DNA from: a virus | Lineage: Duplodnaviria > Caudoviricetes | IMG/VR virus record: IMGVR_UViG_3300025082_000031 | Location: 1 to 34,443 of that record | DNA length: 34,443 nt | Strand: one strand, 5' to 3' | Shown: positions 2,484 through 20,897 of the stretch, one piece after another | Numbering within the stretch: the first letter of the stretch is position 1 | Layout: each line of letters begins with the position of its first letter | Notes under the pieces: generated by a model | What the model was told of the DNA's origin: nothing | What the model saw: the letters and a program-made list of their open reading frames with translations, nothing else | Database searches by the model: none | Translations under genes and position numbers: made by a program

Positions 2484-3412
2484 TCAAGATGGAAGGGTGA
2501 TCACGCAATTGAAACCTGGAGCTTCACAAGCAAGTTGTCCGTAGGAATGAACTCTACATTCAACGCCGTCATCTGCGGATTGCCGCAAAACGCGTAAGCC
2601 ATCGAGTTCTGTGAGCTGAACCACTGGACCAATTGACATTAAAGACCAACGTTTCAGTTCCAATAAAAATGCCGTTGATTCGGGGCATGATTTATCGGGG
2701 ATGATTTTCACAATTCCATGCGGTGCATAGAAATCAAGCGTCCGATATCCGGAAATGGAATCACTTTGCTTGACCTCACGCTGCACTTGTGCATTAAGTG
2801 TTTTTTCAATTTTGACGAAATCGGCAAATGAACAGAACAGGTAATCCGGCTTTCCGCCTTCTCTTGCTGTGATTGCGGCTGCTTCGATGAGGGACTCCAC
2901 GATTGTCATCGAGGAACCATCGAGACGCTGGCCACCCAAACGGGTTGCATCAGTGCTTCGGTCCTGACCGAAAAAGCTTTCTCCACCTGACGGTGCAGTA
3001 GTTGGCAGCCACCCTTCCATTCCAGTGATTGTTTCATCATAATTTCCCTGGACATATAAATAGTCCGATTGGGCAACCGCGGCGATGCCTGCAGTCAAAT
3101 TTCCTGTGCAGGTAATCTGATCGCTTGTGGCAGTTCTGTCGATTGATTGGATGGTGATGGTTCCAGATCGAACTGATCCACCTGTTTTGGTTCCGGATGC
3201 CTGCAGGACCATTCCCACCTCAAAATTGGTCACATCCGTGTCCTTGACCAAGTCAATGACAGCAGATCCAACCGTTGTTGAAGTTGAAATTTGACCTATG
3301 GCACCAGATCCATCCCGATAAAGGGCAGTGGCAATTGAATCACCAACTGATCTGAGAACACCGTCAATTTCAGTGGTCATCGCATTCAAAAAACTGAATC
3401 GATCACCTTCCG
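2484..3412 (-). CDS. Major capsid protein, exon 3 (929 nt)
   Basis: Begins CG|GAA GGT GAT after the intron terminal G at 3413; contains the 301-aa track ORF; position after scaffold gene. Confidence 0.88.
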
Positions 3413-3658
3413 CATTATCTTCACCCAGGTTCGCTATTTCTGGGCCGCCTTTCGGCTGCTGCAGATTCGACTCTGCAGATGGGACTATATCATCACCCTT
3501 ATCGGGTGCGGTGCGCTTCGGATCGCTTGATCCTACTCCTTGCGGATAGTCTCTGAACCTTCCTCATTTGAGGCTTGGCTGCTGATCGGCAGTTCCTGCT
3601 TTCCCAGCAATTCACACCGTTTGCATCAAACATTTCTATCTGATGGCCCTGGATGTTA
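3413..3658 (-). ncRNA. Group I self-splicing intron 2 of the capsid gene (246 nt, no ORF)
   Basis: P1 exon GCCU paired with GGGC, U-G at splice site; P AAUUGCUGGGAA; Q GAUCAGCAGCCAAG; R GGUUCAGAGACUA; S AUGAUAUAGUCC; P3 CGGUGUG/CGCACCG; two short stems between P7 and P3'; terminal G; splicing yields ..AA-S(UCG)-EGD.. Confidence 0.93.
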
Positions 3659-3836
3659 AGGCAGCGACTGCTTCACCGGCGATGGTTGCAACTCCATACG
3701 CGGTTTTCCGCGTCATGAGGAATTCACCAATCTTGGATGCAGTTGCGTTTGATTGTGCAGTGGAAAACACTGCAGAAACGCCCTGTGGGCGATTGAAATA
3801 TACCGGTATGGGAGCATTTTTCCCTCTAAATTTTTC
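3659..3836 (-). CDS. Major capsid protein, exon 2 (178 nt)
   Basis: Stop-free EKFRGKNAPIPVYFNRPQGVSAVFSTAQSNATASKIGEFLMTRKTAYGVATIAGEAVAA between the two introns. Confidence 0.88.
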
Positions 3837-4069
3837 CAGATTGTTATCACGGCTTTTTTAATTACCGTTTCTGCATATTGTCTATGCAGCTCAGACTATT
3901 TCATCACCAGTGGTGTCGGACGCTCGTGGGCGGGTTATTGTTGGGACTCACCGCCTAGTCGTTGAACCTTCCAGGAAACCGTTGCCCTTCCTGGCTTGGC
4001 TGCAGATTGCCCTCGGCTTTACGTTAGGGGTTCCCTGCAATTCATCCGATTTTAAAAGGACAAGTGTCT
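3837..4069 (-). ncRNA. Group I self-splicing intron 1 of the capsid gene (233 nt, no ORF)
   Basis: P1 exon AAAGGAU paired with GUCCUUU, U-G at splice site; P AAUUGCAGGGAA; Q AAUCUGCAGCCAAG; R GGUUCAACGACUA; S AUGAAAUAGUCU; P3 UCGGAUG/CGUCCGA; P8 and P9 hairpins; terminal G at 3837. Confidence 0.93.
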
Positions 4070-4189
4070 ATCCTTTGGGACTAACTCCATAAAAGGATGA
4101 GAGTCGTACACTACCTTTGCCACCTCCGCAGCACGGTAGTATTGTTTGAGGGCATTATCCCACGCCGCGAGGGTCGTGGCAGTTGCCAT
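4070..4189 (-). CDS. Major capsid protein, exon 1 (120 nt); spliced CDS 1227 nt = 408 aa
   Basis: MATATTLAAWDNALKQYYRAAEVAKVVYDSHPFMELVPKD; ATG about 40 nt downstream of the scaffold stop; 120+178+929 nt is one open frame. Confidence 0.88.
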
Positions 4190-7008: not shown

Positions 7009-7190
7009 TAGGACTCCTGGTATTCTCGGATTAGACTATTTTCAGAAGGAAGTGCAGGCATTTTCAGTTCCGGCATTTCCTGGTAAAATTTCACTTTCAA
7101 ACCATGTCCTTCAAACTCTGCCACCCGGTTTTCACTGAGGTATTTGATCAAATCTCTGGAATCTTCCAGGGTTGTTACTTTACGCAGCAC
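7008..7190 (-). CDS. Hypothetical protein (60 aa)
   Basis: Overlaps both neighbours (TAATG coupling to portal); AG-rich RBS. Confidence 0.65.
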   Translation of the reverse strand: MLRKVTTLEDSRDLIKYLSENRVAEFEGHGLKVKFYQEMPELKMPALPSENSLIREYQES

Positions 7191-10100
7191 GTTCTCTTCT
7201 CCTCATTATCTGGGGCGCCTGCATCTGTGCCATCTGCTGGTTTCGTTTTTTGATCGGCTGCTCCAGCTGCGTCAGGAAATCATCAGATTGAGGATTGAAA
7301 AGACCAATGTTCCCGATTGCAGATTTGATCTGTTTCGGATTAAAAACCACAACTTCATTCCCACCAACGATGGCATCAAATCCAGATTCCTCTGCCAGTT
7401 CTGACATGTCGATTCCAAGGGTGTCGGTCAGATTTTCAACAAACTGCCAGGGTAATTTGATGTCAGATGCTTTTTTATCAAAAAGGTTTTCTGCATCTCC
7501 TATAGTCAGCTCATGATCGGACCAGGTCATTGCCTGGAAAAACCCTTCCTTTAATTTTTGCAGCATCTCATCATTAAATTTACTTTTATGCATATTTAAA
7601 GGATTTTTGATTGACAAATAAAATGGAAGGATTTCTGGAGAAAACACTTTATCTTCCATAACCACAACGGCCATATCACCTGCATACTGATCTTCTGCAT
7701 ATTGTTTCAACCCAGCTGCTGTTTTTGGATAATTGTCATCGTTGTAAAAATCCACATTATCAAAATCAAATTCATCAATCTGTTCTGTGAGTTCATCAGA
7801 ACCAACCTGAGATGGATCTGCAAAGACCTTGGCAACCGGTCCACTGATATCCTGCGAAGTTAATTGTTCATCAATGCTTTCTGCATAGTGTTCCGCCGTC
7901 AATGCTTTTGGAGAAAAATAAAATCCTTTTCCATGGTATCCATGATCCCGCAATCCCTGCTTTTCCTTGTCAAATTTGGTTCCCTCAAAACTCGGAGATC
8001 CATGGAAAAACAGCATTGGATCAGTCAGCTCCATATCCTCCATGGTACTGTCGGAAAATTGATTCATTTTCACCTGCTCCGGACCAATTACGGTGACAAA
8101 ATCGTTTTTGTCATGATCAAAAAATAGTTCAAAGGTTGCAGCAGATGGAGTATCACCGGGCTGGTCCTTTTCAAAGTCCCAGTTCCACCAGCGTTCAAAA
8201 TTATGCTGGCGTTTTGATTTGTCTAGGATGGGATGCTGGAGTTCCCGCGCAGATTCGTAGTCGCGCAGGGCGTTTTGGAGATATGTTTGATTTTCCGGGG
8301 AACCAGGTGCTTCACCAAAGACGGTGGAAGCAGTATCTCCGGGAAGGACTAATTGTTTTGTTCTGGGGAGGCTTCTGGAGACGATGGACCAATCTGGTTC
8401 CCTTCCTGGTCCACCAGTTCTACGGGCTGCCTGGTCAAGAGCTGACCGAACGCGGGCCTCAAGTTCTGGCCGGTAATTATTTCGTAGGTCGTCCACAAGC
8501 GATCTTTTCGCCGCTGCTTCGATCCTTTCACTGTAACGTTCGCCATTGTTATCCTTTGTCCAATCATTGTGTCGAATTCTTATGTTAACATCTTCCCATT
8601 CAATTTCAAAGTCGATTCCTTTACCTGGAAATATCTCATTGACGGCATCAACTATGGTTTGTGCATTATTTTCGATGTATGTACGTAATTGCTTTGGATT
8701 GCTTTTTTGCCACAGTGCCTCTTGCGCCCCCTTAGTACCGGGGATATCCTCCCCTTTTTTCGGTTTAACTTCCAAACCACCTTTCGGCATTGGCGGGAAT
8801 GCATCAAGAAGCTGCTGGGTCCATTCTGGATCTTTGCTTTTTTGTATATTGGCCAATATTCCAGGATCAACATGGGATGGTTTCTTCCGTAACCATCTAA
8901 GCAGCTCGGTATTTCCACCTTGAGCGGCCATTTCTGGAGTGGTGACAATCATCCGGATTCCAGGCTTGCCATCTTCCAAAATTGGTTGAAAACCCTGGAA
9001 AAGACCCGGATTCAATTGGTTCACTGACGCCCAGATCTTCTGGAGATTATCCCCCTTGGTGATTCGGTCTGTACCATTTTCCAGAATATCAACTGCAATC
9101 CCGTTCCCATCATCTGCACCTTCAGAAACCGGACGCACCGCCCAGACTTCCGTCTGCTGCGCGAGATATCCCACGATATCTGCATACAGATCCGCCCCTT
9201 CCGGGGATGCAAGCAGTGATTCCACCATGGCAGGTGCAGGATCATAACTTTGCCACCCTCCATGCCCATGGACTCGGCCAATGTTGACGGTTCCCGCCAG
9301 TTCATTAGCAACATCACCCACCCAGGACATCACTTCCCGCGTCACCCTGGTTTTTTCTGGACCTGGAAGGTTTTCAAATTCCGGGAATTCCACACTTAAT
9401 GGAGATCCTTCGCCAAAACTCAATTCTGCACTGACACGCTGGATATTTTGGTCAATTGCTTCAGGGACATCCTCCCCAGGCGCCCCATACAGGTCTGACA
9501 TCGCCATCCAGCCAATCGCCTGGACATCGGGTGCTTCTAACTCAAAATCAATTCCATGATCTAACCCCCATCCACGACTTATCAATTCACCAGCAATGCG
9601 GCGCCCCTGGTTGGCAGCCCATTCATATTGGGTTTCACTCCATCCACCTTTAGGTTGATCAATTTGCAGTTCATATCCCTTTGGGATTCTATAATTTTTC
9701 TTAATGAACTTCGCATAGGTGTCATCCACAAAACCCATGTCCCTGCCAGTGTGGACATCCACCACAAATGGGGCGCCTGCGTCCGGATCTAGGTCATAAT
9801 AGGTCCGGAATTTGTTCTGCATTGCTGCATCATAGAAATCATGGATTTTCTGACCGGCACCTTTGTCAATCGGCTCACCTTCTGCAATCTTAAACAATGG
9901 ATAATCGGCGGTTCCGGATTGTTGTCTGCCAGGATCATCAAATTTGACTCCACGCCGTGCCTGTTCCCGCTGCTTCACATAGGCCCGGATTGCTTGACTA
10001 GGAGATGCCTGCTGTGAACCCACCAAAAACCCGGATTCCATCTCTGGAGTCATCTCTGGTCCCACTGTACTTAGGAAGGGTTCAATCATTTTGTTGGACC

Positions 10101-10671
10101 GATACCATTTGGAAGAGTCCACAATGCGTTCCGAGGGCAAAACCCCTTCAACCCGGCGTATCCAATCCTTTGCGGTTTGTGGTCCAATCCTCAAAGGCGG
10201 CAATAAGACCCCTCTTTTGGGCTGCAGAAGTATAGATTTGTTCTTTGGCGCCCCTGGAAGGGTTGCCTTTTTGTCCAAAAGGAGTTTTTTCTGGTTTTGT
10301 TTCTCTCGATTCTTCCTTTTTGTGGCCCGATCCGCAGATGCTGCAGAAGGGGTAAGGACTTGTTCAAAATCACCACTCAAAGTGGGTGGGACTTCTGCCC
10401 ACATTGAGGCTTTTAACCGGGTTAAGGCTTTGTCTGTGGAAGACTCGGACGCCGGTGGAAGCATTATTGGTGAAATCGTTGGCGCTGCGGCCATTGGTGG
10501 ATCGGCCAGCTCCATAATTGCCTGCCCAGGTCCGCCCAAAACACGCCGAGCTGCAGTTTTTGCAGCAGCTTTCCTAACCGTGGACATTGGCTGCTTTGCC
10601 TGGAGGGTTTCCAGACCAAAATCTTCTGCCGGAAAAGTAAGATCCGTTTGTTGGTTCTGGTTTTCTGCCAT
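7180..10671 (-). CDS. Large polyvalent protein with C-terminal ADP-ribosyltransferase-like (ART-PolyVal type) domain and a possible DNA-glycosylase-like region
   Basis: FFHGS...GKGFYFS...LPFYLSIKNPL...GFDAI..NEVVVFNPKQIKSAIGNIGLFNP at the C-terminus; WY...GQKIHDF...VVDVH..R..G...QAIGW in the N-terminal half. Confidence 0.72.
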   Translation of the reverse strand: MAENQNQQTDLTFPAEDFGLETLQAKQPMSTVRKAAAKTAARRVLGGPGQAIMELADPPMAAAPTISPIMLPPASESSTDKALTRLKASMWAEVPPTLSGDFEQVLTPSAASADRATKRKNREKQNQKKLLLDKKATLPGAPKNKSILLQPKRGVLLPPLRIGPQTAKDWIRRVEGVLPSERIVDSSKWYRSNKMIEPFLSTVGPEMTPEMESGFLVGSQQASPSQAIRAYVKQREQARRGVKFDDPGRQQSGTADYPLFKIAEGEPIDKGAGQKIHDFYDAAMQNKFRTYYDLDPDAGAPFVVDVHTGRDMGFVDDTYAKFIKKNYRIPKGYELQIDQPKGGWSETQYEWAANQGRRIAGELISRGWGLDHGIDFELEAPDVQAIGWMAMSDLYGAPGEDVPEAIDQNIQRVSAELSFGEGSPLSVEFPEFENLPGPEKTRVTREVMSWVGDVANELAGTVNIGRVHGHGGWQSYDPAPAMVESLLASPEGADLYADIVGYLAQQTEVWAVRPVSEGADDGNGIAVDILENGTDRITKGDNLQKIWASVNQLNPGLFQGFQPILEDGKPGIRMIVTTPEMAAQGGNTELLRWLRKKPSHVDPGILANIQKSKDPEWTQQLLDAFPPMPKGGLEVKPKKGEDIPGTKGAQEALWQKSNPKQLRTYIENNAQTIVDAVNEIFPGKGIDFEIEWEDVNIRIRHNDWTKDNNGERYSERIEAAAKRSLVDDLRNNYRPELEARVRSALDQAARRTGGPGREPDWSIVSRSLPRTKQLVLPGDTASTVFGEAPGSPENQTYLQNALRDYESARELQHPILDKSKRQHNFERWWNWDFEKDQPGDTPSAATFELFFDHDKNDFVTVIGPEQVKMNQFSDSTMEDMELTDPMLFFHGSPSFEGTKFDKEKQGLRDHGYHGKGFYFSPKALTAEHYAESIDEQLTSQDISGPVAKVFADPSQVGSDELTEQIDEFDFDNVDFYNDDNYPKTAAGLKQYAEDQYAGDMAVVVMEDKVFSPEILPFYLSIKNPLNMHKSKFNDEMLQKLKEGFFQAMTWSDHELTIGDAENLFDKKASDIKLPWQFVENLTDTLGIDMSELAEESGFDAIVGGNEVVVFNPKQIKSAIGNIGLFNPQSDDFLTQLEQPIKKRNQQMAQMQAPQIMRRRERAA

Positions 10672-15822: not shown

Positions 15823-15968
15823 GGTTCCCTTTTTTTAATCGATTTTCTCCAGTGAGGTTTGACATAACTTGTTTTTGAAAATGATGTTCTCCAGAATCCA
15901 CGGTGGAAGGTATATCCCTTTCTTTTGAACCGGAAAACATACACCCAAATATTCCATAATTTTTTCAT
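15819..15968 (-). CDS. Small basic hypothetical protein (49 aa)
   Basis: MKKLWNIWVYVFRFK...; ATGA coupling at both ends; GGAGAGGGG RBS. Confidence 0.5.
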   Translation of the reverse strand: MKKLWNIWVYVFRFKRKGYTFHRGFWRTSFSKTSYVKPHWRKSIKKREP

Positions 15969-16915
15969 TTTGGCCCCTCTCCATGTTCAAAAGTTTTCAG
16001 CTTTTCCTTTCCGAATTGCACCAGATCTTTCACATCAGCTTCACTCATAATGGCAGGCCATTTAAGTTTTTCACCGGCTTTTAAATAAGCTTCCAGATCT
16101 CTTTTCCTGGTGTAGTTTCCAATTTTATTCTTGGCTATTTCTTTAGGTGATTCACCTACTTCAAAAGGCACTGTTCCAGATTTAGTTTCAACATCTTTGG
16201 TGACAATCTCCTCGGCGGCTTGCACCAGGTGTTTCACTTCGGATTCAGATCCATTAGTTTCTTCCTGTTTTTTCTCTTCATCCATCATTAGTTTTACTTC
16301 TTCTGCTGCTGTTTCCAGGCGCTTTTCTAAGTCAGTGCCGGAACCTTCTGGGGTTATGTCTTTAGTTTTTAATTCTTCAACTGTTTTGTTTGCCATTTCC
16401 TCAATGGAGTAGATGCCTGCCAAGATGTCGGGGAATGCTTCCCGTGCTGCGAACATTCCGGCACGCCAGTACAGCATGTTTTCCGCATAGGCTGTCCATG
16501 CTCCTCCACCTTTAACAAGACCTGCGGCCTTTGCTTGATCTAATGTGAAAGTCCTGCTGGATTCAACTCCATCACGCAGATAAGTGACGGTGCAGGAATA
16601 GGCTTGACCGTTTTTGGACTCACGTTTGATTGTCGGAGGTTTGTCGGCATGGGGAAGGACTAAACCCATTGCTGCAATTGCAGTAAGATGGACCGTGTTA
16701 TGCAGCGGGTATAAATTATGAAGGGACTGCATTGGACTCCACCCATGCCCACGCCCCATCTGTATAGCAGTGAAAACTTGCTCTGGTGTTTTAAAAACTC
16801 CGGTCATTTGAGATGCAGACAATGCTTTTGAGAGTCTGAAATCATAATCGAAAAGGGCCATTTCCTTTTCTAGGTGCATTTTTGGCTTTGCTGCAAGTGC
16901 AGTCTCTTCATTCAT
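15965..16915 (-). CDS. RecT/Red-beta-like single-strand annealing protein
   Basis: AIQMG..HGWSPMQSL, FTLDQAKAAGL....W......ML..RA...AAR..FPDIL.GIYS.EE motifs; near the RecE-like exonuclease. Confidence 0.8.
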   Translation of the reverse strand: MNEETALAAKPKMHLEKEMALFDYDFRLSKALSASQMTGVFKTPEQVFTAIQMGRGHGWSPMQSLHNLYPLHNTVHLTAIAAMGLVLPHADKPPTIKRESKNGQAYSCTVTYLRDGVESSRTFTLDQAKAAGLVKGGGAWTAYAENMLYWRAGMFAAREAFPDILAGIYSIEEMANKTVEELKTKDITPEGSGTDLEKRLETAAEEVKLMMDEEKKQEETNGSESEVKHLVQAAEEIVTKDVETKSGTVPFEVGESPKEIAKNKIGNYTRKRDLEAYLKAGEKLKWPAIMSEADVKDLVQFGKEKLKTFEHGEGPK

Positions 16916-17399
16916 TTGTTCCTTTCATTTCATTTAAGATATCCGCCAGGCAAATCCAGCGGGGTACATCCAGCGGAGCCACATAGGTTTCCGCCTCAGT
17001 TCCTCGGTTATGGTGGACGCGCCGGACTTCCCACCGATGCCGGGTGTCCGAGTTGATCATTGCCGCGTGCGTCCCGGTGCGGTTTAAAATAATAAATCCC
17101 AAAGGTCTTTCCCCTTGGTCAAAGGATGATTTTCCGGTCACCAGAATATCCGGGAATGGATAGTCTTCCCGGCATGTCCAATCGATGGTTCTTTGCTTCA
17201 CTTCCAAGCGTTTCAAAATGTGAAGATCCCCAAGATCCCGGAAGACATCCCGCTGCTGTGGTGTCGGTGCCTTATGCATTCCATTCATCTGAATGGTCTG
17301 ACCTAACCGGGTTAAATAAACTGCCACCGCGCAGACTGCTTGCTGCGACTTTTCCAGTGCAGCCAGGAATCCCTGGTGCGTCTGTTTGAGATCAATCAA
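16908..17399 (-). CDS. Hypothetical protein, possible PD-(D/E)XK nuclease fold
   Basis: DLGDL...LEVKQR motif; TTG start. Confidence 0.5.
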   Translation of the reverse strand: MIDLKQTHQGFLAALEKSQQAVCAVAVYLTRLGQTIQMNGMHKAPTPQQRDVFRDLGDLHILKRLEVKQRTIDWTCREDYPFPDILVTGKSSFDQGERPLGFIILNRTGTHAAMINSDTRHRWEVRRVHHNRGTEAETYVAPLDVPRWICLADILNEMKGTNE

Positions 17400-17412
17400 A
17401 AGTACACAGTCT

Positions 17413-17452
17413 GTTTACCCGTTTACTCGTTTACCCGTTTGCTCGTTTGCCC
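17413..17452 (+). repeat. Five tandem 8-bp repeats GTTTRCYC
   Basis: gtttaccc gtttactc gtttaccc gtttgctc gtttgccc in a non-coding gap. Confidence 0.85.
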
Positions 17453-17553
17453 CAACAAACGATCTGACAAATGTGCGCTTTTTAGGGCGTGGTCTGCGCC
17501 CCAAAATACGCCCCATATTTGCAGACTAAATGCAGACAGTCTGCGTTAGTCTG

Positions 17554-18408
17554 TTATGGCCATTCCAGTTTCCGCCGCATCCAATCTGGTACTTCCATGG
17601 GCTGCTGGTTCCTCGCATATCCTTCCGGTCTTCCCTTTTCCAGATAGGCTTCCCACTTCTGCACCGCCCTGGTGACCATGCCGATTCCGATGTCAATCCA
17701 CTCAGGATCAATCGGCAGCACGTTCACTTGGTAGGGCGGTTCTATTTCAATAAGAATGTAGTAATAACCATGGACGGTGAAACCGAGCTGACGCCACACC
17801 TCAACCTGGATGCCGGCCTGGATAAAAGTTTTGTAATTGAAGAAATCTTTGAGCCACGCATCACGCGAGCCTTTCCCGAGCTGGCGGGATTTGATATCAA
17901 CCAGGTCATTGCAGAATTCAGAACAATCCAGATCGGGGCGTGCCTTCACTGGTGTCCGCAGCACCTGGCCGAATCCTGAGATTTCTTTTTTGGAATGTTC
18001 TAAAAATAGTTTTGCTTCTGGATGTTTCCAGGCTGCTTCACTGCAGCGTTCCGCCGTCAGAAACTGGTGGTGGCGCAGCGGAATTTTGTCTTCACTGACT
18101 TCCTGGAAAATCTGCCATTGGTCTTTCCCGGACTTGGTGTTCAGTTTCACATCCGGACCATGAGCGTATTTTTTGTGGAAGGATTCCGGGTCTTCGGTTG
18201 CCTCATGGATTAGGGTGCCGAGGATCATGGCGTCAGTCGATGCCTGGGGATTTTTCTTTTTATAATCTGCATACGCTGGTGAGACTTCCACATCCATCAG
18301 ATTGTGTGCAGATAACTCTGGCCGTGCATGATATTCCTCATTGGGCAGATTATCGTGCATTGAAAGCACAGGTTTTAAAACGGAACACAGCTCTTTATTT
18401 TCTCCCAT
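17554..18408 (-). CDS. RecE/exonuclease VIII-like PD-(D/E)XK nuclease
   Basis: NEEYHA...LS, AMILGTLIH, KARPD, VDIKS, Y..QA motifs. Confidence 0.85.
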   Translation of the reverse strand: MGENKELCSVLKPVLSMHDNLPNEEYHARPELSAHNLMDVEVSPAYADYKKKNPQASTDAMILGTLIHEATEDPESFHKKYAHGPDVKLNTKSGKDQWQIFQEVSEDKIPLRHHQFLTAERCSEAAWKHPEAKLFLEHSKKEISGFGQVLRTPVKARPDLDCSEFCNDLVDIKSRQLGKGSRDAWLKDFFNYKTFIQAGIQVEVWRQLGFTVHGYYYILIEIEPPYQVNVLPIDPEWIDIGIGMVTRAVQKWEAYLEKGRPEGYARNQQPMEVPDWMRRKLEWP

Positions 18409-20690: not shown

Positions 20691-20897
20691 ACGATCACCC
20701 ATCAATCACCCATGGCTAAATCGGATGTCACCCTAAACCCGTAAACCGTTGCAAACAGTACACGGAGGTGGATGCGTCACTGGTGGGCGTCCCGGTCTTC
20801 AAAACTGGGGCGGTTCAATAATATCAATGGGTTAGCTATAAAAATATCAATCACAATCAATCACCCAGGGGGGTTTCAATCACCCAAACGATCACCC
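20690..20897 (+). promoter_or_regulatory. attP: attP region with arm-type repeats (ATCACCC core) and an IHF site
   Basis: aacgatcaccc/atcaatcaccc at 20690, 20701, 20856, 20875 and 20887 flank a tRNA fragment; TATCAAtgggTTA at 20822-20834 fits the IHF consensus WATCAANNNNTTR. Confidence 0.8.
20764..20808 (+). tRNA. selC: Partial tRNA-Sec, 5' half only (attP core), anticodon UCA
   Basis: GGAGGTGG 8-nt acceptor strand, extended D stem around a TGGT loop, CCGGT-CTTCAAA-ACTGG anticodon arm; no variable arm, T arm or 3' acceptor strand follows. Confidence 0.8.

Follow-up and report, generated by a model that had tools for sequence, protein, structure and literature searches.

Two predicted group I introns without open reading frames in the major capsid gene of a temperate-type phage, with relatives at eleven sites in related capsid genes

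The major capsid gene of a tailed phage (Duplodnaviria; Caudoviricetes) is split into three exons by two inserts that, judged by their sequence, are standard group I introns without open reading frames (ORFs), and related introns occupy eleven coding positions in the capsid genes of its relatives. On the whole we lean towards viewing them as predicted self-splicing introns of subgroup IA that are tolerated parasites and are moved by short-patch DNA recombination. The DNA analysed, here called the window, is IMG/VR virus record IMGVR_UViG_3300025082_000031 at its full length of 34,443 nt, which is about 95% complete.

Phage group I introns are described as favouring genes of nucleotide and DNA metabolism, a pattern called unexplained (PMC12350094; PMC11878797). 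Capsid-gene introns are already published: that of mycobacteriophage LittleE was shown by RT-PCR to splice, the same paper refers to another in the capsid gene of lactococcal phage Tuc2009 (Pope et al. 2013; PMC3706429), and crAss-like phages of the Delta/Zeta groups have capsid-gene introns, which in one genome break the gene into five fragments (Yutin et al. 2021; PMC7886860). Capsid splicing is also reported for Faustovirus (PMC6247863), and in Jug phages the terminase and reductase genes are described as holding numerous short introns that are backed by RNA data (PMC12880540). In the main texts of this literature, we found no description of the window's intron family or of a general capsid bias, and neither 'phage' nor 'capsid' occurs in the main text of PMC11835236. 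What is new here is the number of sites, the lack of an intron-encoded endonuclease, the apparently recent lateral transfer, and a capsid bias in environmental samples that differs from the published picture.

Results

On the minus strand, the window carries terminase, portal, capsid, adaptor and tail genes together with an ORF in the scaffold position, and on the plus strand an integrase and a repressor-like gene. A temperate lifestyle is predicted from the integrase, the repressor-like gene and an attP-like stretch. This stretch (20764-20817, plus strand), the 5' half of a tRNA-Sec-like sequence, lies beside the integrase and repressor genes, occurs also in the relative G006 (L464, near 9360), and is likely the attP for integration into a host tRNA-Sec gene. 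An exact 32-nt search with it matched 0 genomes, and the capsid relatives in genome bins that might have named a host (seven loci, 26-46% identical) were taxonomically scattered. The phage is likely marine, because the contigs of its relatives are named marine or Tara. Between terminase and portal lies a gene (7180-10671, minus strand) for a 1163-aa protein with an ART-PolyVal ADP-ribosyltransferase domain (E 1e-17); the same slot in relatives holds different proteins of 815-1069 aa. Among GenBank phages there was no close capsid relative (one matching record, 22%) and no close copy of either intron (records covering 80%: 0 of 96 and 0 of 226 matches).

The capsid gene, in general the most highly expressed structural gene of a phage, runs on the minus strand from an ATG at 4189 to a stop codon at 2484. 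Exon 1 (4070..4189, 120 nt) comprises codons 1-40, exon 2 (3659..3836, 178 nt) extends from codon 41 to the first base of codon 100, and exon 3 (2484..3412, 929 nt) supplies the remainder of codon 100 through to the stop and contains the listed 301-aa ORF. Joined, the three exons make 1227 nt, equal to 408 aa plus a stop codon, with 0 internal stops. The exon and insert coordinates and lengths of the first-pass annotation, which had proposed this structure, proved correct to the base, and its 1227-nt, 408-aa product was reproduced. When candidate junctions had to show U just ahead of the 5' cut and G at the intron end, the same junctions came out on top, and alternative splice points were rejected on their lower scores (110 vs 83 and 100 vs 80). 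Colinearity with intronless homologues, on which the annotation had staked its proposal, held in 98 of 98 homologues of at least 390 aa (120 listed), which align gap-free across both junctions; the intronless P0001 (408 aa) is identical to the joined protein at 399 of 408 positions. Two loci, L004 and L052, have neither insert, and they are DNA alleles rather than cDNA because 37 of 1224 coding bases differ from the window. The two-intron structure is repeated in L001, L002, L003 and L051, which argues against assembly error.

PHROGs matched the window's capsid to a major head protein (E 4e-10), and P0001 scored 23.4 against PF17236 (SU10-like capsid), for which the cut-off is 24.1. The predicted structure of P0001 (pLDDT 84.6) has the SU10 capsid 7z48 as its top match (E 7e-12), followed by other phage capsids; on this model, the joined product is a major capsid protein of the SU10/HK97 fold. 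The expectation that ORF callers would mis-annotate the gene was borne out by the 298-aa product P0121, which public callers place on 12 contigs and which is the end of exon 3. Truncated capsid products in databases start at an intron-terminal AUG or an internal Met and measure 368, 356-357 or 295-298 aa. At sites 114 and 147 (L027, L040, L084 and others; sites are numbered by coding position), the intron ends in an AUG that shares the reading frame of the exon after it, and gene callers start the 368-aa and 356/357-aa proteins there.

Intron 1 (3837..4069, minus strand, 233 nt) lies at site 120 and intron 2 (3413..3658, minus strand, 246 nt) at site 298. Both inserts exceed the threshold of the group I covariance model proposed as a check: cmscan with RF00028 (gathering score 50) gave 76.6 bits (E 5.8e-18) at 4109-3871 for intron 1 and 73.2 bits (E 6.2e-17) at 3669-3459 for intron 2, and among the four Rfam matches with E<=1 in the window, only these two were above the gathering score. 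A P1 helix with U·G at the 5' splice site and a terminal G, as annotated from the sequence, are present in both. The guide sequence of intron 1 (4055..4061, minus strand) forms a 7-bp P1 with the end of exon 1, whose last base U pairs with G, and that of intron 2 (3646..3653, minus strand) forms a 4-bp P1 (exon GCCU, guide GGGC) plus a 3-bp P10. Hairpins P7.1 and P7.2 between P7 and the 3' strand of P3, along with a short P5, mark subgroup IA, and intron 2 has both hairpins (3520..3546, minus strand) in a fold consisting of P1, P2, P3-P8, P9, P9.1 and P9.2 (z -3.5). Elements of this type are given as classing features of group I introns in a review (PMC3984707). The IA-like intron 1, the core of which was judged from the Rfam alignment and the fold, lacks P2 and has one such hairpin between P7 and P3 (z -2.2). 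Neither intron has a homing endonuclease ORF in a loop. The two are 53% identical, and the P4-P6 part of intron 1 is similar to introns of Bacillus, Staphylococcus, Enterococcus and Alteromonas phages, which marks them as separate acquisitions.

Covariation was assessed in 25 of the 31 distinct introns of the family, including intron 2 and leaving out intron 1, three introns with a 3' extension and two with long P1 loops. In this set, 96.6% of cells were paired and 37 of 61 pairs changed on both sides; slid controls were 30-44% paired, and 0 of 500 shuffles reached the score, a contrast that related sequences inflate. The G-C binding pair of P7 after the bulge was invariant, three other P7 pairs changed on both sides, and compensatory changes occurred in P7.1 and P7.2.

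Unspliced RNA would run into an in-frame stop 5 and 7 codons into introns 1 and 2, so that capsid synthesis would depend on both splicing events. Each intron contains its own guide, which pairs with the preceding exon and places U·G where the 5' cut falls, the binding pair for G within a P3-P7 core, and G as its last base; guanosine would attack the 5' site, and the exons would then be ligated at the terminal G. Such a step follows established group I chemistry. From these elements, guanosine-initiated self-splicing from late mRNA with exon ligation at the terminal G is predicted with high confidence. A single RNA run (11% of words matched) covers only exon 3 on the window, at 90-95% identity, and the RNA is that of a relative; it gave no read across either junction. 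On L040, the same run gave a contig that opens with the exon downstream of site 147 and has a 14-nt overhang resembling the exon upstream of it; it was set aside as spliced RNA, since 33 of 229 bases differ and it may be an intronless allele. Unspliced products ending in an ssrA-like tag were sought and rejected on 20 distinct read-through tails of the family, which had no common motif, and a promoter scan gave no more matches than chance.

The family was delimited with an intron profile in the window and 111 related loci (112 sequences, 511 kb, redundant). It gave 75 matches in 46 of the 112 sequences, each of them inside the capsid gene. No intron outside this gene was found in another 142 kb from seven records or by Rfam searches of ten whole records, a sample in which only four records (the window's included) are at least 90% complete and genes far from the capsid are thinly covered. 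When partial matches and three chimeric or deleted cases (L028, the second intron of L035, L043) are dropped, there are 31 distinct complete introns of 233-296 nt, ORF-less in 31 of 31 cases, at coding positions 40, 114, 120, 147, 298, 323, 773, 820, 824, 838 and 849; that of intron 1 (120) was fixed by the junction scoring with its U and G requirement. Introns are present in 19 of 43 distinct near-full capsid genes (at least 64% aa identity), with one to three per gene, and their presence is scattered over the gene tree (10 changes among the 43 genes). None were seen in the six genes at about 60% or in more distant loci, in a search confined to the best 80 of 560, a choice that may favour intronless genes. 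P1 is formed at all 11 sites and follows the exon at site 298 (GCAU/GUGC vs GCCU/GGGC). The sites do not lie in especially conserved protein segments (p=0.20). Site 147 has no obvious P10, and its introns in L040 (2555-2847) and L112 are extended at the 3' end, ahead of the terminal G, by about 47 nt that are possibly an ORF remnant. Two-site hybrids with exon duplication, or introns with P1 missing, were seen at L028:2100-2520, L035:2780-3130 and L043:440-720; hybrids of the L028/L035 type may be mis-assemblies or natural crossovers between sister introns.

Introns at the same site often reach 96-99% identity across genes that are 70-82% identical (third positions 49-62%), and others are 82-95% identical. 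At site 820, introns are 99.2% and exons 70.0% identical; at site 114, the values are 96-99% and 79-91%; and at site 298, intron 2 and the intron of L089 are 98.8% identical in capsid genes that are 78.9% identical. The window and L089 each have an intronless sibling at about 97% (L004 and L005, respectively), and around site 298 the window has the bases of L089/L005 at -2 and +2, unlike its sibling L004. In L095 and L090 (compared with L054), the intron alleles differ from the intronless sibling at the site and match the putative donor, and in L061 (compared with L010/L011) a foreign tract of about 23+45 nt surrounds the site. The foreign flanks in L095, L090 and L061 are about 10 to 70 nt long. 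Mean flank identity exceeds that of intronless controls mostly within about 5-15 nt, a distance over which selection on P1/P10 could by itself be at work; the tract in L061 extends too far to be explained in this way. These foreign exon flanks indicate that the ORF-less introns themselves were transferred at the DNA level, and since such flanks cannot come from reverse splicing into a phage's own mRNA, RNA movement is unfit to explain the same-site spread. That this spread reflects lateral transfer of DNA is, on the sequence comparisons, highly likely, and we strongly infer that intron 2 was acquired laterally from the L089/L005 lineage, together with a few bases of the adjoining exons. Just after site 849, a 63-nt exon patch (capsid coding positions 850-912) is identical at 62 of 63 positions between the window and L089 and at 58 of 63 between L004 and L005; outside it, window and L089 are 77-81% identical. 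The patch that the window and L089 have in common is intron-free, so that patch exchange evidently occurs in the capsid gene.

Machinery for such exchange may be encoded in the window itself, where a recombination module (15965..18408, minus strand; PHROGs, Atlas) consists of a RecT-like annealing protein, a 163-aa ORF and exonuclease VIII. RecT-type recombinases tolerate short, diverged homology. We regard the module as candidate machinery for intron patch transfer, with the RecT/exonuclease VIII system, acting during co-infection or superinfection of a lysogen, as the likely vehicle; patch exchange by the recombinase is preferred because the RecT-like and exonuclease VIII genes are present and the 63-nt patch is shared. 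The 163-aa ORF (16908-17399, minus strand) belongs to large unnamed viral clusters in Atlas and shows a PD-(D/E)xK-like motif by eye. In the intron-bearing relative G001, a free-standing HNH-like ORF (L460:3974-4672) adjoins exonuclease VIII.

Introns at different sites can also be close sisters (773/820, 96.8% identical; 40/114, 93-94%; 820/838, 91.5%). Exon GCCU, matching guide GGGC, precedes 6 of the 11 sites in three reading phases, against a background of 1.35% of T positions (p about 3e-9 by site; 4 of 8 lineages, p about 2e-6), and intronless alleles at these sites often have another synonymous variant. The introns are mosaics, with segments that have different nearest neighbours.

Capsid introns beyond the family were sampled in IMG/VR by three motif scans, which returned at least 125, 124 and 123 loci from an estimated ~1100, ~1900 and ~1100 stretches; host genes were labelled by hand from PHROGs matches of the flanking frames. 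The 125 loci of sample 1 and 57 new long loci of the 124 in sample 2 formed at least 153 clusters at 90%. Among the matches listed for these two samples, 52 of 102 named clusters had capsid hosts, in 12 PHROG families plus the window's own, and 52 clusters were unnamed; other hosts listed were reductase (11), DNA polymerase (8), RNA polymerase (7), psbA (7), terminase (1) and portal (0), the last two serving as an internal control for hallmark-gene bias. Sample 3 (80 of 123 loci, partly overlapping samples 1-2) comprised, among the matches listed, 70 clusters, including 34 capsid, 16 DNA polymerase, 10 unnamed and 1 terminase. The motifs were drawn from the window's intron family, so the capsid share may be inflated. 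With this reservation, the samples point to capsid genes as an under-reported intron hotspot. The claim that two introns in the capsid gene of a small temperate phage are unusual, made in the first-pass annotation, thus stands against the classic literature and gives way in view of the published capsid introns, of relatives with up to three per gene, and of the capsid being the commonest named host gene in these motif-based samples.

Among the matches listed, introns were ORF-less more often in capsid than in other genes, with 36 of 40 vs 4 of 31 in the first two samples (p=0.015 if recoded for the worst case; the motifs exclude P5/P6 ORFs) and, in the third, 24 of 30 vs 9 of 24 (p=0.002). On a tree of weak resolution, introns from capsid genes are intermixed with those from other genes (21 changes vs 35 when shuffled). 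A near-identical intron across capsid, holin and endolysin contexts was rejected as a clustering error from a truncated locus. Capsid introns in L478, L496, L510, L526, L528, L532, L533 and L535 (PHROG 283, 334) encode an HNH protein immediately 5' of P7, probably within P6; L314 and L317, on viral contigs, have group I cores followed by a transposase (IStron-like), one of them in a helicase gene; and L132, L161, L170, L181, L472 and L501 pack three or four introns into about 2 kb, for the most part of capsid genes.

Discussion

How the introns move can be read in several ways. That DNA-level transfer proceeds without any endonuclease is, in our judgement, only slightly favoured. The main rival holds that the introns splice and are spread by a homing endonuclease acting in trans, either free-standing or in a sister intron of a co-infecting phage, so that an ORF-less intron rides along or is the cut-resistant allele, as in the collaborative homing described in PMC3984707. 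Break repair would leave co-converted exon flanks of the kind found here, a prevalence of 19 in 43 genes is more than would readily be expected from neutral drift, other phage families do have capsid introns that encode an endonuclease (6 of 34 capsid clusters in sample 3), HNH-bearing ones among them, PHROGs identifies the HNH-like ORF of intron-bearing G001, and 13% of the members of a neighbouring Atlas cluster link the 163-aa ORF of the window to PD-(D/E)xK-like proteins. That ORF was rejected as a trans-acting endonuclease for want of a link to intron presence: it is also found in the intronless G006 and G009 and was not found in the intron-bearing G001 (79% complete). Moreover, no endonuclease gene adjoins the window's capsid gene, none of the 111 related loci has an endonuclease-sized insert, eleven sites would require many specificities, and the sites are not unusually conserved. 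Pfam searches for HNH_3 and GIY-YIG had no match in five of five records, but the HNH_3 search missed the HNH-like ORF of G001, so negative searches of this kind are weak. We consider homing in trans unlikely, albeit the strongest rival to recombination without an endonuclease. A benefit to the phage, such as delayed or tuned capsid synthesis, would fit introns that are confined to one gene and structurally intact throughout the family; it is very improbable given a 97%-identical allele with neither intron, numbers that vary freely from 0 to 3 over 11 sites, and read-through tails with nothing in common, and it is as tolerated parasites that the introns probably persist. That the gene is a broken pseudogene or the product of mis-assembly can be dismissed almost completely: three related loci do look chimeric or deleted, but the identical structure recurs on four other contigs, the exons are without frame damage, the ribozyme core covaries, and the window ORFs scanned include no second capsid gene.

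For the origin of new sites, excised intron RNA may reverse-splice into the abundant capsid mRNA at a 4-nt guide match and then become fixed in DNA. A shared exon motif at heterologous sites has been used to argue for reverse splicing in fungal rDNA (PMC1299323), and this route is described in a review as being without direct experimental support (PMC3984707). Among unrelated capsid introns, too, GCCU/GGGC is the most frequent P1 (7 of 43), so that it may simply be the habit of a lineage; whatever the route of insertion, filtering by selection for splicing would yield the same exon motif; and the window ORFs scanned included no recognisable reverse transcriptase. We put reverse splicing into capsid mRNA forward tentatively, at somewhat less than an even chance. 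Sister introns could also be made by core swapping between resident introns, as their mosaic structure would allow, at old sites founded by endonucleases whose ORFs have since been lost. Nearest neighbours that differ by segment within single introns, a site 298 common to two lineages only 67.5% identical, and the joining of the 5' part of one site to the 3' part of another in L028 and the second intron of L035 are in keeping with this; yet the pairs 40/114 and 773/820 resemble each other segment by segment as far as the terminal G, the shared GCCU is exonic and cannot be altered by intron-to-intron exchange, and the only possible ORF remnants are the 3' extensions of about 47 nt in 3 of 31 introns. 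Core swapping as the source of the sister introns seems to us unlikely, though a serious rival.

The closest published cases differ from the window, as far as they are described in the sources cited. What the window shares with LittleE is a major capsid gene interrupted by a group I-like intron, in a temperate-type phage some of whose relatives are intronless; unlike LittleE, which has one intron with an endonuclease ORF, it has two ORF-less introns in a family of 11 sites, a clear Rfam match, an unrelated capsid lineage, and splicing that is predicted only. The same paper describes a tail-gene intron in BAKA and Optimus, that of BAKA being ORF-less, 265 bp long and 98% like part of the LittleE intron (PMC3706429). 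The crAss-like phages also have several group I introns within one capsid gene; they are large gut phages with introns in many genes, found via intron-encoded protein domains, unlike the window, a 34-kb phage with ORF-less introns in which only the capsid gene is invaded (PMC7886860). Bastillevirinae and the orf142 gene of Twort likewise have IA-subgroup introns (IA2/IA3-type), two or three per gene, that self-splice in vitro and in vivo and for which exon skipping is reported; these introns sit in genes for polymerase, reductase and terminase, and a nuclease is encoded in 32 of 45 of them, unlike those of the window. The word 'capsid' is absent from the main text of that paper, and its Supplementary Table S1, which lists split phage genes, may hold capsid cases (PMC11878797). 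As in fungal rDNA, related ORF-less introns sit at heterologous sites with only 4-8 nt of 5' exon in common; unlike those introns of eukaryote rRNA genes, the phage introns interrupt mRNA and spread to the same site with co-converted DNA flanks (PMC1299323).

For these phages, intron-truncated entries of a hallmark gene skew capsid-based classification. The family offers pairs of alleles that have or lack the introns, ribozymes that are short, and sisters at different sites of one gene, which make self-splicing, reverse splicing and endonuclease-free spread each testable. A broader and more doubtful idea is that capsid mRNA, as the late transcript of greatest abundance, is a preferred landing site comparable to rRNA, with reverse splicing there by RNA pairing alone followed by spread through recombinase patches and no endonuclease at either step. 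If true, compact IA-type introns of environmental phages would reside chiefly in capsid rather than DNA-metabolism genes, and the present family, with its 11 sites, sisters up to 97% identical and intronless alleles at 97%, would be a natural test system for the unproven route of RNA transposition.
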